A stretch of DNA of 64,000 bases, from assembly GCF_003334335.1 (NCBI RefSeq), contig NZ_QOWQ01000014.1; one strand, 5' to 3'. The DNA comes from Escherichia coli. GTDB lineage: Bacteria > Pseudomonadota > Gammaproteobacteria > Enterobacterales > Enterobacteriaceae. The notes below the pieces were generated by a model that was not told the DNA's origin, did no database searches, and saw nothing but the letters and a program-made list of their open reading frames with translations. Positions 2,938-41,899 of the stretch are shown here, piece after piece (position 1 is the first letter of the stretch; the number at the start of each line of letters is the position of its first letter). A program made the position numbers and the translations under genes.

Positions 2938-3121
2938 AGTGGCTCATTCACCGACTTATGTCAGCCCCTTCGGGACGTGCTACATAAAATACGAATGACG
3001 CACAACAAGGTGCCTGCCGTCCAACTTCTGATATCAGCGTAGCTATATCAACCATCGGGCGAAACGTCGAGTTAGGCACCGCCTTATTCCATAACAAAGC
3101 CGGGTAATTCCCGGCTTTGTT
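2938..3121 (+). ncRNA. glmY: small RNA GlmY (regulator of the GlmZ/glmS cascade)
   Basis: Begins about 12 nt after the sigma54 -12 element (agtggctcattcacc...), ends at intrinsic terminator hairpin aaagccggg/ccggcttt (3096-3118) plus a U-rich tail; contains no plausible ORF; sits directly upstream of glrK as in E. coli. Sequence recognised from memory, not verified by alignment. Confidence 0.8.
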
Positions 3122-31695: not shown

Positions 31696-31880
<185 letters not shown>

Positions 31881-32544: not shown

Positions 32545-32655
32545 TAAAAAGAATTCAGAATCAGGCCGGAGTGCTAAATACTCCGTAAACACGGTCGTAC
32601 ATCCAGCCGGTAGCCTGATTCCTTGCATTGAGTGATGTACGGAGTTTATAGAGCA

Positions 32656-39216: not shown

Positions 39217-39253
39217 CATTTGCGCCCCGAACGTTGAATGAATTGTGGTTCTT

Positions 39254-40030
39254 ATGTCCGAAACAAAAAACGAACTTGAAGACCTGCTGGAAAAAGCAGC
39301 AACTGAACCGGCGCACCGCCCGGCCTTTTTCCGTACTCTACTGGAATCCACCGTCTGGGTGCCTGGTACGGCGGCGCAGGGCGAGGCTGTGGTTGAAGAT
39401 AGCGCGCTTGATTTACAGCACTGGGAAAAAGAAGACGGCACCAGCGTCATTCCTTTTTTCACCTCGTTAGAAGCACTTCAACAGGCGGTTGAAGACGAAC
39501 AGGCATTTGTCGTAATGCCCGTTCGCACGCTGTTTGAGATGACACTTGGCGAAACGCTCTTCCTTAATGCCAAAATGCCAACCGGTAAAGAATTTATGCC
39601 GCGTGAAATCAGTTTGTTGATTGGTGAAGAGGGAAATCCGCTGAGCAGCCAGGAAATCCTGGAAGGCGGTGAATCGCTGATATTATCGGAAGTCGCAGAG
39701 CCGCCAGCACAAATGATTGATTCACTCACCACCTTATTTAAAACCATTAAGCCGGTGAAGCGTGCTTTTATTTGTTCAATTAAAGAGAACGAAGAGGCAC
39801 AGCCTAATTTACTTATTGGCATTGAAGCCGATGGTGATATCGAAGAAATTATTCAGGCGACGGGAAGTGTAGCGACCGATACATTACCTGGCGATGAACC
39901 AATCGATATTTGTCAGGTGAAAAAAGGGGAAAAAGGAATTAGCCACTTTATTACCGAACATATTGCGCCATTCTATGAACGTCGCTGGGGTGGTTTTTTG
40001 CGTGACTTTAAACAGAATCGGATAATCTAA
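39254..40030 (+). CDS. sseB: SseB (acidic protein of unknown function, DUF-type)
   Basis: ORF track 39245..40030; start ATG 39254 (MSETKNELEDLL...). Confidence 0.85.
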   Translation: MSETKNELEDLLEKAATEPAHRPAFFRTLLESTVWVPGTAAQGEAVVEDSALDLQHWEKEDGTSVIPFFTSLEALQQAVEDEQAFVVMPVRTLFEMTLGETLFLNAKMPTGKEFMPREISLLIGEEGNPLSSQEILEGGESLILSEVAEPPAQMIDSLTTLFKTIKPVKRAFICSIKENEEAQPNLLIGIEADGDIEEIIQATGSVATDTLPGDEPIDICQVKKGEKGISHFITEHIAPFYERRWGGFLRDFKQNRII

Positions 40031-40054
40031 AATATGCCGCCCAAAGGGCGGCAT
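40027..40054 (-). terminator. intrinsic terminator oriented for a minus-strand transcript ending next to the sseB stop
   Basis: 9-bp GC hairpin atgccgccc/gggcggcat (40034-40054) followed on the minus strand by AUUUUA (plus coordinates 40028-40033); no U-tract on the plus strand. Confidence 0.55.
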
Positions 40055-40060
40055 TCGGGC

Positions 40061-40186
40061 TTACTTGCTGCTCTGAAGGTTGTTAACCACCAGTAAATTG
40101 TCGCCGGAGAGACTCCGGTTATTATTTACCTCGGTTAACAGCGCACCAGAAACAATAAGTACGATACAAAAGCACCGTATCTTCAT
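40061..40186 (-). CDS. candidate small protein (41 aa) with hydrophobic N-terminal segment
   Basis: Minus-strand ATG at 40184-40186, TAA at 40061-40063; MKIRCFCIVLIVSGALLTEVNNNRSLSGDNLLVVNNLQSSK; stop lies 6 nt before the terminator hairpin; weak SD; below the 60-aa cutoff of the ORF track. Confidence 0.35.
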   Translation of the reverse strand: MKIRCFCIVLIVSGALLTEVNNNRSLSGDNLLVVNNLQSSK

Positions 40187-40210
40187 TGTGCGGTCCATGC
40201 GAAGACCGCA

Positions 40211-40285
40211 TCACGACAGCACCACTGGCGATATTGCCGCGATAGCAAGCGCTGTGAAACACCTGCATTTACGGCCACGGAACAT
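40211..40285 (-). CDS. candidate small protein (24 aa) with basic N-terminus and hydrophobic C-terminus
   Basis: Minus-strand ATG at 40283-40285 preceded by AGGAAAGG Shine-Dalgarno, TGA at 40211-40213; MFRGRKCRCFTALAIAAISPVVLS. Confidence 0.3.
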   Translation of the reverse strand: MFRGRKCRCFTALAIAAISPVVLS

Positions 40286-40317
40286 CCTTTCCTAAAGCCA
40301 GCGCCCGTTTGCGAGAC

Positions 40318-40513
40318 GGCGGAAAGGGCCGCAGTGGATAATACACTAACAGAACAATAATAACTCTCTTTTGCTTGACAAAAAGAGAGTTACTGGCGAG
40401 TATTGTCTCCGCTGAGACGCGCTTGCATTACTACGGTAATACAACCTGCTGGAAAGGCCGCGAACCGGACCAGCAACAAAAAACCGCCTGATTTTGGCGG
40501 TTTTTTGTTTTTT
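40318..40513. repeat. tandem module copy 1 (palindrome with promoter hexamers + bidirectional terminator)
   Basis: ggcggaaagggcc...taactctcttttgcttgacaaaaagagagtta (perfect 12-bp stem 40361-40372 / 40381-40392) ...ctgctggaaaggccgcgaacc...aaaaaaccgcctgattttggcggtttttt; about 80-85 percent identical to copy 2. Confidence 0.85.
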
Positions 40514-40668
40514 AAAGGAAAGTGAATTTACATGTTTAAGTAATATCTTTTACCGGTTAGAATTTTTAATTTTGAGCAGGATTTGTTTATATTTGTCTGA
40601 ATTCGGACTAATAAGCCAGGTTATTTTATTACCGAACACGGCGGAAAGGGCCGGTGTCGATAATACGC
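40478..40668 (-). ncRNA. predicted second (sibling) minus-strand transcript driven by module copy 2
   Basis: Same TTGTCA-16-TATTGT hexamers conserved in copy 2 (plus 40698-40703 and 40676-40681); would terminate at the copy-1 terminator (40478-40506); no ORF longer than a few codons; AT-rich body. Confidence 0.3.
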
Positions 40669-40831
40669 TAAATAAACAATAATTACTCTCTTTTGCTTGA
40701 CAAAAAGAGAGTTACTGGTGAGTATTGTTTTGCTGTGAAGCACCTGCGTTGCTCATGTAACACAAGTCAACCTGCTGGAAAGGCCGCGAACCAGACTAGC
40801 AATAAAAAACCGCCAAATTCGGCGGTTTTTT
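40640..40831. repeat. tandem module copy 2; its terminator also serves sseA
   Basis: ggcggaaagggccggtgtcgataatacgctaaataaacaataattactctcttttgcttgacaaaaagagagtta...aaaaaaccgccaaattcggcggtttttt; terminator stem conserved but loop differs from copy 1; period between copies 322 bp. Confidence 0.85.
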
Positions 40832-40847
40832 ATTGCCTGTAAAATAC

Positions 40848-41693
40848 TTATTTCACTGGCTCAACCGGTAAATCTGCCCGCGCGCCCCATTCACTCCATG
40901 CGCCGTCGTACAGTTTCACGTTTGGCACATCCAGCGTCGCGAGTGCTAACAAAACCACGGCTGCCGTTACACCAGAGCCGCAGCTGACGATAATTGGTTT
41001 GTCGTAGCTGACGCCGCGACCAAAAAATATCGCATCCAGTTCATCGGTCGTTTTTAGTTCGCCTTCGCGCACCAGTTCCGTCCACGGAACATTCAGTGCT
41101 CCGGGAATATGTCCGCGACGTAAACCTGGGCGAGGTTCATCAACTTCTGCGTTAAAACGTGCAGCCGGGCGGGCATCAATAATTTGCGCCGTATTTTCAT
41201 GGCTTGCCAATAATACATCGGTTACTTTCACCACGGCTTCAGGATTAAACGCGGCGTTAAACTCTCCTTCCGGCAGCTCTACTGCACCTTCTTCTAACAG
41301 CAGATCATCGCGCTGCCAGCCTGCAAGTCCACCCCCCAGAATCGACACTTTCTCTACACCAAAGGTGCGCAGCATCCACCATGCTCGTGGGGCTGAGAAA
41401 AGATTACCTTCGTCATAGACAATCAGGTGCTTATCCTGGTTAACGCCTAATTCACGCATCGCCACGGCGAACGTTTCCGGGCGCGGCAGCATGTGCGGAA
41501 GCGGGGAAGTGTGATCAGAAAGCGCTTCGATATCAAAAAACACTGCGCCGGGAATATGTCCATTCAGATACTCCTGAGCAACGTTACGATCCTCCTGTCC
41601 AGGCGACGCCATGCGGGCATCGATAATCTGAATTTCCGGGTCATCAATATGTTCGGCGAGCCAGTCGGCTCCTACAAACCATGTCGTGGACAT
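40848..41693 (-). CDS. sseA: 3-mercaptopyruvate sulfurtransferase (tandem rhodanese domains)
   Basis: ORF track 40848..41852 (-); start taken at ATG 41691-41693 (MSTTWFVGADWL..., 281 aa); active-site cysteine motif CGSGVTA. Confidence 0.9.
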   Translation of the reverse strand: MSTTWFVGADWLAEHIDDPEIQIIDARMASPGQEDRNVAQEYLNGHIPGAVFFDIEALSDHTSPLPHMLPRPETFAVAMRELGVNQDKHLIVYDEGNLFSAPRAWWMLRTFGVEKVSILGGGLAGWQRDDLLLEEGAVELPEGEFNAAFNPEAVVKVTDVLLASHENTAQIIDARPAARFNAEVDEPRPGLRRGHIPGALNVPWTELVREGELKTTDELDAIFFGRGVSYDKPIIVSCGSGVTAAVVLLALATLDVPNVKLYDGAWSEWGARADLPVEPVK

Positions 41694-41899
41694 AGGCATC
41701 TCCATTTTTGCCGGGGTTAGGCTAAATTGTCGGATGTTTAGTGAAAAGCGACAAGCAAAAGAGGCTGATTTGGCTGTCTGAGCCACAATTCTCACTAAAA
41801 TTCGGATTGTATGGGCGTGATACTGAATTACATAACGTAAATTCTCACGCATAATAATTATTCGACGTTGCTAACGGGCCATTGTGGCAGGGATGAAAA

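Follow-up and report, generated by a model that had tools for sequence, protein, structure and literature searches.

Introduction

Why does the intergenic region between sseB and sseA of Escherichia coli hold a good part of its sequence twice, and what does the second copy encode? The question arose from a first-pass annotation of the 64,000-nucleotide stretch analysed here (the window; contig NZ_QOWQ01000014.1 of assembly GCF_003334335.1), which noticed two imperfect direct repeats with a period of 322 bp and read them as two minus-strand small RNA (sRNA) genes, RyfA and a sibling. The sequence is the K-12-type sseB-sseA intergenic region, with the already-known timP (ryfA)/TimR locus: its 821 nucleotides (nt) contain one mismatch to MG1655 and are 100% identical to several other strains. 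The analysis indicates that it is very probably the timPR type I toxin-antitoxin locus on the chromosome of a K-12-like E. coli, comprising one and a half modules, in which the sRNA candidate IS128 is a relic. The repeat exists because the gene of the timR repressor is present twice. While the system itself is known, three modest additions are made, namely the recognition of the published transcript ECS011/IS129 as a second TimR paralog, of IS128 as a deletion relic, and of a mismatch between adjacency and cognacy of antitoxin and toxin.

Two TimR Genes Underlie the Direct Repeat

The repeat search recovered the direct repeat, with the period first reported, as a 91-nt segment (40316-40406 / 40638-40728, 90% identity, spacing 322) and a 64-nt segment (40442-40505 / 40768-40831, 84% identity, spacing 326), and gapped alignment of the copies placed a diverged middle between them (approximately 40407-40441 / 40729-40767). 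This architecture is far beyond chance and recurs with at least 99% identity in approximately 1500-1600 E. coli genomes. The direct repeat consists of two timR genes together with the adjoining timP promoter and the first 16 nt of timP mRNA, and its conserved unit is a plus-strand gene for the TimR antitoxin sRNA, present in two copies referred to as timR-1 and timR-2 (Table 1). Each is composed of a TTGACA-17-GAGTAT promoter, a variable 5′ region, a conserved core and its own intrinsic terminator, and the pattern TTGAC(A/T)-17-nAnnAT is present in all E. coli types and in every genus examined. A consensus promoter/terminator scan missed both timR promoters, because GAGTAT matches three of the six consensus positions, and both timR terminators, because the A/T-extended stem uses up the T-run. 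The timR calls rest on conservation across types and genera, a sequenced 5′ end and RNA folds.

For comparison, 13 enterobacterial ryfA loci among the matches listed were taken from Escherichia, Citrobacter, Superficieibacter, Yersinia, Rahnella and Erwinia, Salmonella being outside the set. In 12 of these a TimR-like element, built with this promoter spacing and core, lies 59-81 nt upstream of ryfA, with a 5′ seed complementary to its own ryfA 5′ untranslated region (5′UTR) at a conserved position (-36.6 to -44.3 kcal/mol). The core (GCUGGAAAGGCCGC..ACC.GACCAGC), stem-loop SL1 and the terminator of these TimR homologs recur in timR-1. When 15 TimR sequences from six genera were aligned, 97% of cells paired in the three-stem structure, compared with 30-55% for slid partners, and four base pairs with compensatory changes were found in SL1 and the terminator; the central stem does not vary and so carries no covariation signal. 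Rfam 15 contains no TimR family and returned sub-threshold, terminator-driven hits only. One Citrobacter amalonaticus locus (L075, 8069-8340) gave a shorter ryfA match of 272 nt; beyond the ryfA 5′ end its sequence begins within a TimR-like 3′ end plus terminator. It yielded no complementary seed, and rearrangement or an artefact of the locus boundary may explain it.

Only one of the two genes is annotated. The MG1655 record lists timR-2, which lies in repeat copy 2 adjoining sseA, as its sole timR noncoding RNA and has no feature at the position of timR-1. A 71-nt deep-sequencing contig designated ECS011 (Shinhara et al. 2011) is identical to window positions 40409-40479, and its Northern probe maps to 40411-40445, in the copy-specific 5′ region of timR-1. 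ECS011 was represented by 46.5 mean reads, gave Northern bands of approximately 95 and 100 nt in K-12 and was equated with IS129 by the same authors (PMC3175480). Contig and bands at this position establish that timR-1 is expressed in K-12. The literature searched contained neither a link of ECS011/IS129 to TimR nor a second K-12 timR. Another early candidate, C0614 (old K-12 coordinates 2651474-2651560, on the ECS011 strand), falls at 40649-40735 (+), across the module-2 promoter and the first timR-2 bases, and probably reflects timR-2, imprecisely mapped in an early array experiment.

Two further features had been noted in each copy, a palindrome and a GC hairpin between an A-run and a T-run, and both were borne out. 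The inverted repeat has 12-nt arms in copy 1 and 10-nt arms in copy 2 and encloses the -35 element common to the divergent promoters. A role for it as an essential operator was considered and is improbable because it is absent from type C and from other genera, being present only in seed types A and B (defined below) and in E. whittamii. The hairpin, CCGCC/GGCGG with its A- and T-runs, closes each copy (arms 40475-40488 / 40496-40509 and 40799-40817 / 40818-40836) and was found both by repeat search and in folds; the terminators in the repeat are mainly those of TimR. Its stems are identical between copies and its loops differ (TGATTTT and AAATTC), as originally described, but the selection on RNA structure read into this pattern is not favoured. 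The spacer-proximal terminator always carries CUGAUUUUGG and the sseA-proximal one CAAAUUCGG, whatever the seed upstream. The loops thus follow array position rather than sRNA type, which points to recombination within the conserved TimR core rather than to loop selection.

Seed Types Match the Toxin to the Distal TimR

The diverged middle of the repeat is not decay. As judged from its covariation with a site in the timP 5′UTR, it is the TimR seed. The fetched E. coli loci contain at least five seed types: A (GCUGAGACGCGCUUGC; timR-1 of the window and strain 442/2), B (GCUGUGAAGCACCUGC; timR-2 of the window and GF131 module 1), C (CUGUGGGGUGCCUG; O157:H7), D (GACGAGAUACACUUGC; PKF11 and GPEC874) and E (in part UUCGAGACAGCACAU; one strain, P276M). 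Matching ryfA 5′UTR sites exist for types A-D; the loci fetched contained none of type E. RNAduplex was run on 5′ seeds against 5′UTR windows, as full-length input gave over-extended duplexes. Cognate seed/site pairs form 16-20 contiguous base pairs (-34 to -44 kcal/mol) and non-cognate pairs 4-11 (-17 to -34 kcal/mol), the exception among the latter being the B site with the C seed, which forms 18 contiguous pairs, six of them G-U.

The only timP in the window carries a B-type site, at a position that agrees with the SL2 site of Salmonella (PMC11228461), and therefore matches the distal timR-2. With timR-2 it forms 20 contiguous pairs, three of them G-U (-42.5 kcal/mol), compared with 11 contiguous pairs and two mismatches with the neighbouring timR-1 (-33.4 kcal/mol), whose seed fits the timP allele found in other lineages of E. 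coli. These pairings make timR-2 the probable main repressor; timR-1 would then be weaker or redundant. As the U-rich B site is wobble-tolerant of A and C seeds, some cross-repression of timP by TimR-1 is plausible.

The Toxin Transcript and Its Promoter

The minus strand of copy 1 was correctly identified as RyfA, that is, timP mRNA. It matches the full Rfam model RF00126 (positions 1-296) with 314.9 bits against a gathering score of 80, the sole RF00126 hit in the window. The suggested TimP/TimR connection was likewise upheld: the 41-residue TimP scored 86.8 bits against NCBIfam NF040796 (cut-off 45), and both timP and timR (b4811) appear in the RefSeq and MG1655 annotation. Both minus-strand transcripts predicted at the outset coincide with Rfam matches, ryfA and IS128 (Table 1).

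The promoter assigned to these transcripts stood in part. The motif TTGTCA-16-TATTGT is indeed present on the minus strand of both copies, but TATTAT rather than TATTGT is the probable -10 of ryfA/timP, as suggested by cross-genus comparison. In the 13 loci listed, covering six genera, a -10-like hexamer precedes the ryfA 5′ end by approximately 5-6 nt, in the variants TATTAT, TATGAT, TACACT, TACAAT and TAAAAT. In the window its position fits the annotated ryfA 5′ end at 40332, the E. coli ATG corresponds to Rfam model position 147, and the Salmonella timP open reading frame (ORF) starts at +145, a geometry consistent with a TATTAT-derived start. TTGTCA is the reverse complement of the timR -35, and taxa differ in how far it lies from the conserved -10 (19-35 nt). 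The complete motif is found only in Escherichia types A and B, with related TATTCA motifs in type C and Citrobacter, and it could act as a secondary promoter.

IS128 as the Probable Stub of a Second timP Module

The second minus-strand transcript had been proposed as an independent sRNA. It coincides with IS128 (RF00125, full length, 262.1 bits against a gathering score of 80), which is best read from its composition as the stub of a second timP module with 357 bp deleted and not as a sibling sRNA. Its parts are, in order, 16 nt of ryfA, the antisense of a 14-nt sseB remnant, the AT-rich spacer and the antisense of the timR-1 terminator. The sibling RNAs RyfA1 and RyfA2 are both full-length; here RF00126 is hit once and copy 2 keeps 16 nt of ryfA, with the -10 TATTAT preserved at 40660-40665. 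Deletion breakpoints were set with exact anchors. The window is identical to full two- or three-module arrays through TTTATTACCGAACA, the position at which an 87-bp sseB fragment begins in full duplicates, and then continues directly with CGGCGGAAAGGGCC, the ryfA 5′ end. Compared with GF131, the 357 bp missing comprise the remainder of the sseB fragment, the terminator of ryfA, timP and everything in ryfA past its first 16 nt. Equivalently, the K-12 form can be described as a type-B module into which a 322-bp block has been inserted at ryfA +16, the block consisting of type-A promoter, timR-A, spacer and a 14-nt piece of sseB: without 40317-40638 (322 bp), a 499-bp locus remains that shows 95.6% identity to a type-B single module and 88.8% to a type-A one.

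Published data on IS128 are conflicting. Zero reads and no strand-specific Northern signal were obtained in K-12, and Shinhara et al. suggested that it is an artefact or expressed under specific conditions only (PMC3175480), but one RNA sequencing study lists it as differentially expressed. Overexpression gave no phenotype in four assays. No IS128 match was found in the 13 other enterobacterial ryfA loci, among the matches listed, and the literature searched did not link IS128 to a deleted timP module. IS128 and the spacer contain no conserved ORF, only a 29-residue GTG-start ORF and a 62-residue TTG-start ORF. The latter (40494-40682, +) spans the AT-rich spacer and is probably spurious, as its frame is broken by a 1-bp indel in GF131. 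The spacer was also considered as a decayed ryfA; this was rejected, no similarity being found beyond the 14-nt sseB fragment.

Module Arrays across E. coli

All of 5426 complete E. coli genomes carry the locus, at varying length, most of them as a single module of approximately 496 bp. The spacer (40506-40624) was found in 2158 genomes (approximately 40%), 1615 of them with at least 99% identity, and the truncated K-12 form in approximately 30%. A complete second module, sometimes followed by a third, occurs in 156 genomes, and each extra module opens with the 87-bp copy of the sseB 3′ end and holds an intact 41-residue timP. Sites and seeds were typed in a small, non-random sample of loci. 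In the typed E. coli loci and in E. whittamii, every ryfA has a cognate timR within its locus, strain 06-00048 being untypable. In four configurations the adjacent timR is non-cognate and the distal one cognate. The K-12 form and the window combine ryfA site B with an adjacent type-A and a distal type-B timR; P276M has site B with adjacent E and distal B; GPEC874 and 19AR0646 have site D with adjacent B′ and distal D; and module 1 of 19KM1831 has site C with adjacent A and its cognate C in module 3. In strains 2900 and PKF11 the cognate A pair is joined by an orphan, a type-D timR. Other antitoxins lacking a cognate toxin include timR-1 in K-12 and type E in P276M.

Several of these loci show individual rearrangements. 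19KM1831 (L006, 1200-3100) has three modules with three intact timP genes; their sites are C, B and C′ and the seeds A, B and C, leaving the A-type TimR of this strain without a cognate toxin. In GPEC874 and 19AR0646 (L129 / L132), an IS200/IS605 tnpA is inserted between the distal type-D timR and sseA. In P276M (L133, 700-900 + 1048), the timP ORF diverges past codon 7, the 3′ part of ryfA is replaced and sseB is frameshifted, while two timR genes, one with the unique type-E seed and one of type B, are kept; here the toxin appears to be lost and the antitoxins retained. In 06-00048 (L130, 1340-1600), timR follows directly on the ryfA body, the two being fused at the site/seed sequence (a plus-strand direct repeat), and the fusion removes the 5′UTR-proximal part and both promoters, leaving an intact 41-residue timP ORF promoterless; an IS3-family element lies within the timR terminator of this strain.

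A wider reading of these configurations, rather doubtful and put forward tentatively, is that the sseB-sseA locus is a recombining array of specificity-typed toxin/antitoxin cassettes in which the cognate TimR is often one module away. Recombination within the conserved stretches would part a toxin from its own antitoxin. Retention of orphans could reflect selection, if each timP needs a matching TimR somewhere in the array. Orphan TimRs could also guard against timP alleles that recombination brings in, or act on trans targets. A hint of such targets comes from avian pathogenic E. coli (APEC), where ryfA deletion is harmful only with timR present.

Comparison with Known Systems and Proposed Mechanism

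The ibs/sib, ldr/rdl and zorO-orzO with zorP-orzP loci are multi-copy type I loci of E. coli that encode small hydrophobic toxins under sRNA control. They occur as tandem or dispersed paralogs, and short variable pairing regions discriminate between cognates. Their antitoxin normally lies beside or overlaps its own toxin, whereas several timPR strain types have a non-cognate neighbour and a distal cognate, as well as antitoxins that lack a cognate toxin.

A close likeness is to the timP/TimR system of Salmonella Typhimurium (Andresen et al. 2020, PMC7667032; PNAS 2024, PMC11228461; NAR 2026, PMC13000454), which shares the ryfA-homologous mRNA, the TimP family and a divergent sRNA of approximately 100 nt with a terminator and a seed complementary to a conserved 5′UTR position. 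Salmonella is described with one timP and one timR, whereas the window carries two timR genes with different seeds, the cognate one not adjacent, and a truncated second module. In Shigella dysenteriae, RyfA1/RyfB1 and RyfA2/RyfB2 (Fris et al. 2017, PMC5333039) form tandem modules at the equivalent locus with divergent sRNAs of approximately 100 nt, RyfB being the Shigella counterpart of TimR, and a short variable region sets which RyfB acts on which RyfA. The first-pass annotation was right to relate copy 2 to the Shigella sibling copies. The complete second modules of the 156 array-bearing E. coli genomes resemble the Shigella arrangement; S. dysenteriae keeps two full-length ryfA genes, whereas the second one is cut to 16 nt here. 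The K-12 candidates IS128 (40464-40672, -) and ECS011/IS129 (40409-40479, +) agree with the window in both coordinates and sequence (PMC3175480). They were published as an unexplained cis-antisense pair or an intergenic sRNA and are read here as a timP-module stub and a TimR paralog.

Briefly, the minus strand gives a ryfA/timP mRNA of approximately 300 nt encoding the 41-residue membrane toxin TimP. The TimR 5′ end would pair with stem-loop 2 of the timP 5′UTR, blocking a structure needed for translation. This step is drawn from Salmonella, the source of the experiments on toxicity and repression, where TimR represses timP translation through 5′UTR pairing, as demonstrated by compensatory mutations and in vitro translation (PMC7667032), and where pairing to its site in stem-loop 2 prevents formation of a pseudoknot required for translation (PMC11228461). 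For E. coli, we infer by analogy that pairing leads to repression and that TimP is toxic; RyfA overexpression slowed the growth of MG1655. Module 2 would once have had its own timP, and the leftover promoter, if it fires, would yield the ORF-less IS128, running into the back of the timR-1 terminator.

Alternative Explanations

Several observations weigh against a truncated timPR array in which timR-2 acts as the main repressor. The better-pairing copy may be the less expressed one, as timR-2 is not on the deep-sequencing candidate list of Shinhara et al. and timR-1 is. At 40797, timR-2 has CUAGC in place of the CCAGC of all 14 other TimR sequences, a C-to-T change by which one pair of the otherwise invariant stem becomes G-U, and its predicted minimum-energy fold no longer forms this stem. 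Duplex energies take no account of the accessibility of stem-loop 2, and the B site needs three G-U pairs with its cognate seed and pairs appreciably with A and C seeds, so specificity may be leaky. The literature searched holds no demonstration of native-level E. coli TimP toxicity or of TimR repression in K-12; in uropathogenic E. coli and APEC, ryfA phenotypes were reported to be independent of the ORF and timR deletion to have little effect, which puts the role of the peptide and of TimR in E. coli in question. One RNA sequencing study lists IS128 as differentially expressed, down in transition and stationary phase, so it may be made under some conditions.

In one alternative, the adjacent timR-1 would be the working timP repressor in K-12 through wobble-tolerant pairing, timR-2 being a silent or decaying leftover. 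Such an arrangement would agree with the ready detection of ECS011 by sequencing and Northern, with the two mismatches that alone interrupt pairing to the B-type site, and with the altered stem of timR-2. It is nevertheless unlikely, since timR-2 retains promoter hexamers and spacing, an intact terminator and a good fold (z = -4.7), its full 20-pair match contrasts with the 11 pairs of timR-1, and in the three other configurations only the distal timR can pair (-34 to -43 kcal/mol; the neighbour reaches -18 to -22). Moreover, Shigella RyfB1 did not lower the non-cognate RyfA2, and absence from a candidate list is weak evidence. The original proposal of two minus-strand siblings, RyfA and an independent AT-rich IS128 of approximately 190-210 nt driven by TTGTCA-16-TATTGT promoters, is quite improbable. 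It can draw on the standing of IS128 as an Rfam family, on the promoter-like site and conserved TATTAT -10 retained in copy 2, on a fold better than that of shuffled sequences (z = -4.1) and on the down-regulation just mentioned. Against it stand the silence of IS128 in K-12 reads and probes, its lack of an overexpression phenotype, its absence from the 13 other loci listed and the restriction of its defining spacer and K-12 form to parts of the species; as a patchwork, it also owes much of its predicted fold to the antisense of the timR-1 terminator.

Because the two convergent units have one bidirectional terminator in common, and IS128 overlaps the timR-1 3′ end perfectly over 46 nt (40464-40509, duplex -85 kcal/mol), its 3′ end might titrate or destabilise TimR-1 or interfere with its transcription. 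An anti-antitoxin of this kind is pure inference and very improbable: IS128 is undetectable where timR-1 is readily detected, it is not conserved beyond the K-12-type form, and nothing requires such a role. Scarcely credible at all is the idea that the region of the sseA-proximal terminator was duplicated locally without any meaning or conserved function, although the duplication is polymorphic within E. coli and the terminator-loop versions follow position and not type. The unit is a complete gene with promoter, seed, core and terminator, conserved across genera; both copies are kept at 99% identity or more in the 1500-1600 genomes noted above, and one is annotated and the other experimentally detected. 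The first-pass annotation had itself allowed for a terminator duplication lacking conserved hexamers, a scenario refuted by these findings. The truncated timPR module array is the reading retained.

Significance

Since the system was already known, the additions are practical and incremental. The laboratory standard K-12 contains a second TimR gene that was detected in 2011 as ECS011/IS129 and is omitted by the reference annotation. A knockout of b4811 alone leaves a partly complementary sRNA in place, which could mask phenotypes, and residual timR-1 may be relevant to the weak phenotypes described for timR in E. coli. IS128, still an Rfam family and carried in sRNA lists and overexpression libraries, is best interpreted as a stub left behind by a deleted toxin gene. 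Finally, the seed/site types and non-cognate neighbours offer natural specificity swaps for gauging how far TimR action needs pairing, and raise the testable question of why orphan antitoxins persist.

Feature Coordinates and Other Elements of the Window

Table 1. Features of the sseB-sseA region in window coordinates.
Feature	Position	Strand	Evidence or remark
timR-1, TimR paralog, seed type A, ECS011/IS129	40409..40509 (approx.)	+	ECS011 identity, Northern, TimR structure
timR-1 promoter TTGACA-17-GAGTAT	40375..40403	+	conservation across types and genera; ECS011 5′ end 6 nt downstream
timR-2, annotated TimR b4811 (40732-40831), seed type B	40732..40836	+	MG1655 annotation mapped; fold
timR-2 promoter TTGACA-17-GAGTAT	40697..40725	+	architecture as copy 1; annotated timR start 7 nt downstream
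ryfA RNA, timP mRNA	40029..40332	-	Rfam RF00126; MG1655 b4440
timP coding sequence, 41 residues, MKIRCFCIVLIVSGALLTEVNNNRSLSGDNLLVVNNLQSSK	40061..40186	-	NF040796 toxic_TimP; RefSeq timP / b4812; intact ORF
TimR-binding site (predicted) in timP 5′UTR, type B, approx. +63..+82	40251..40270	-	repeat search, seed duplexes
Probable ryfA/timP -10 TATTAT	40338..40343	-	cross-genus conservation
Promoter-like TTGTCA-16-TATTGT	40354..40381	-	consensus scan; second copy 40703..40676
ryfA/timP intrinsic terminator	40034..40054	-	terminator scan: 9-bp stem, 7 GC pairs, then T-run
Inverted repeat, 12-nt arms, around GCTTGACA	40361-40372 / 40381-40392	.	repeat search, arms 100% complementary
IS128, relic unit of truncated second timP module	40464..40672	-	Rfam RF00125
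AT-rich spacer, tandem-array junction	40510..40624	.	between modules of full two-/three-module arrays
sseB 3′-end remnant, 14 nt, TTTATTACCGAACA	40625..40638	+	exact copy of 39947-39960
First 16 nt of lost second ryfA	40639..40654	-	two-copy alignment; deletion compared with GF131
sseB coding sequence	39245..40030	+	ORF list; RefSeq annotation on identical sequence; 3′ end borders locus
sseA coding sequence	40848..41693	-	RefSeq on identical region, 846 nt; borders locus

The annotated sseA is enclosed in a longer ORF (40848-41852). Further Rfam matches in the window are those expected for this part of the K-12 chromosome: GlmY (2938-3085, +, 146 bits), naRNA4 (31757-31828, +, 72.2 bits), the iscR stability element (32545-32654, +, 138.1 bits) and SroE (53501-53592, +, 116.6 bits).

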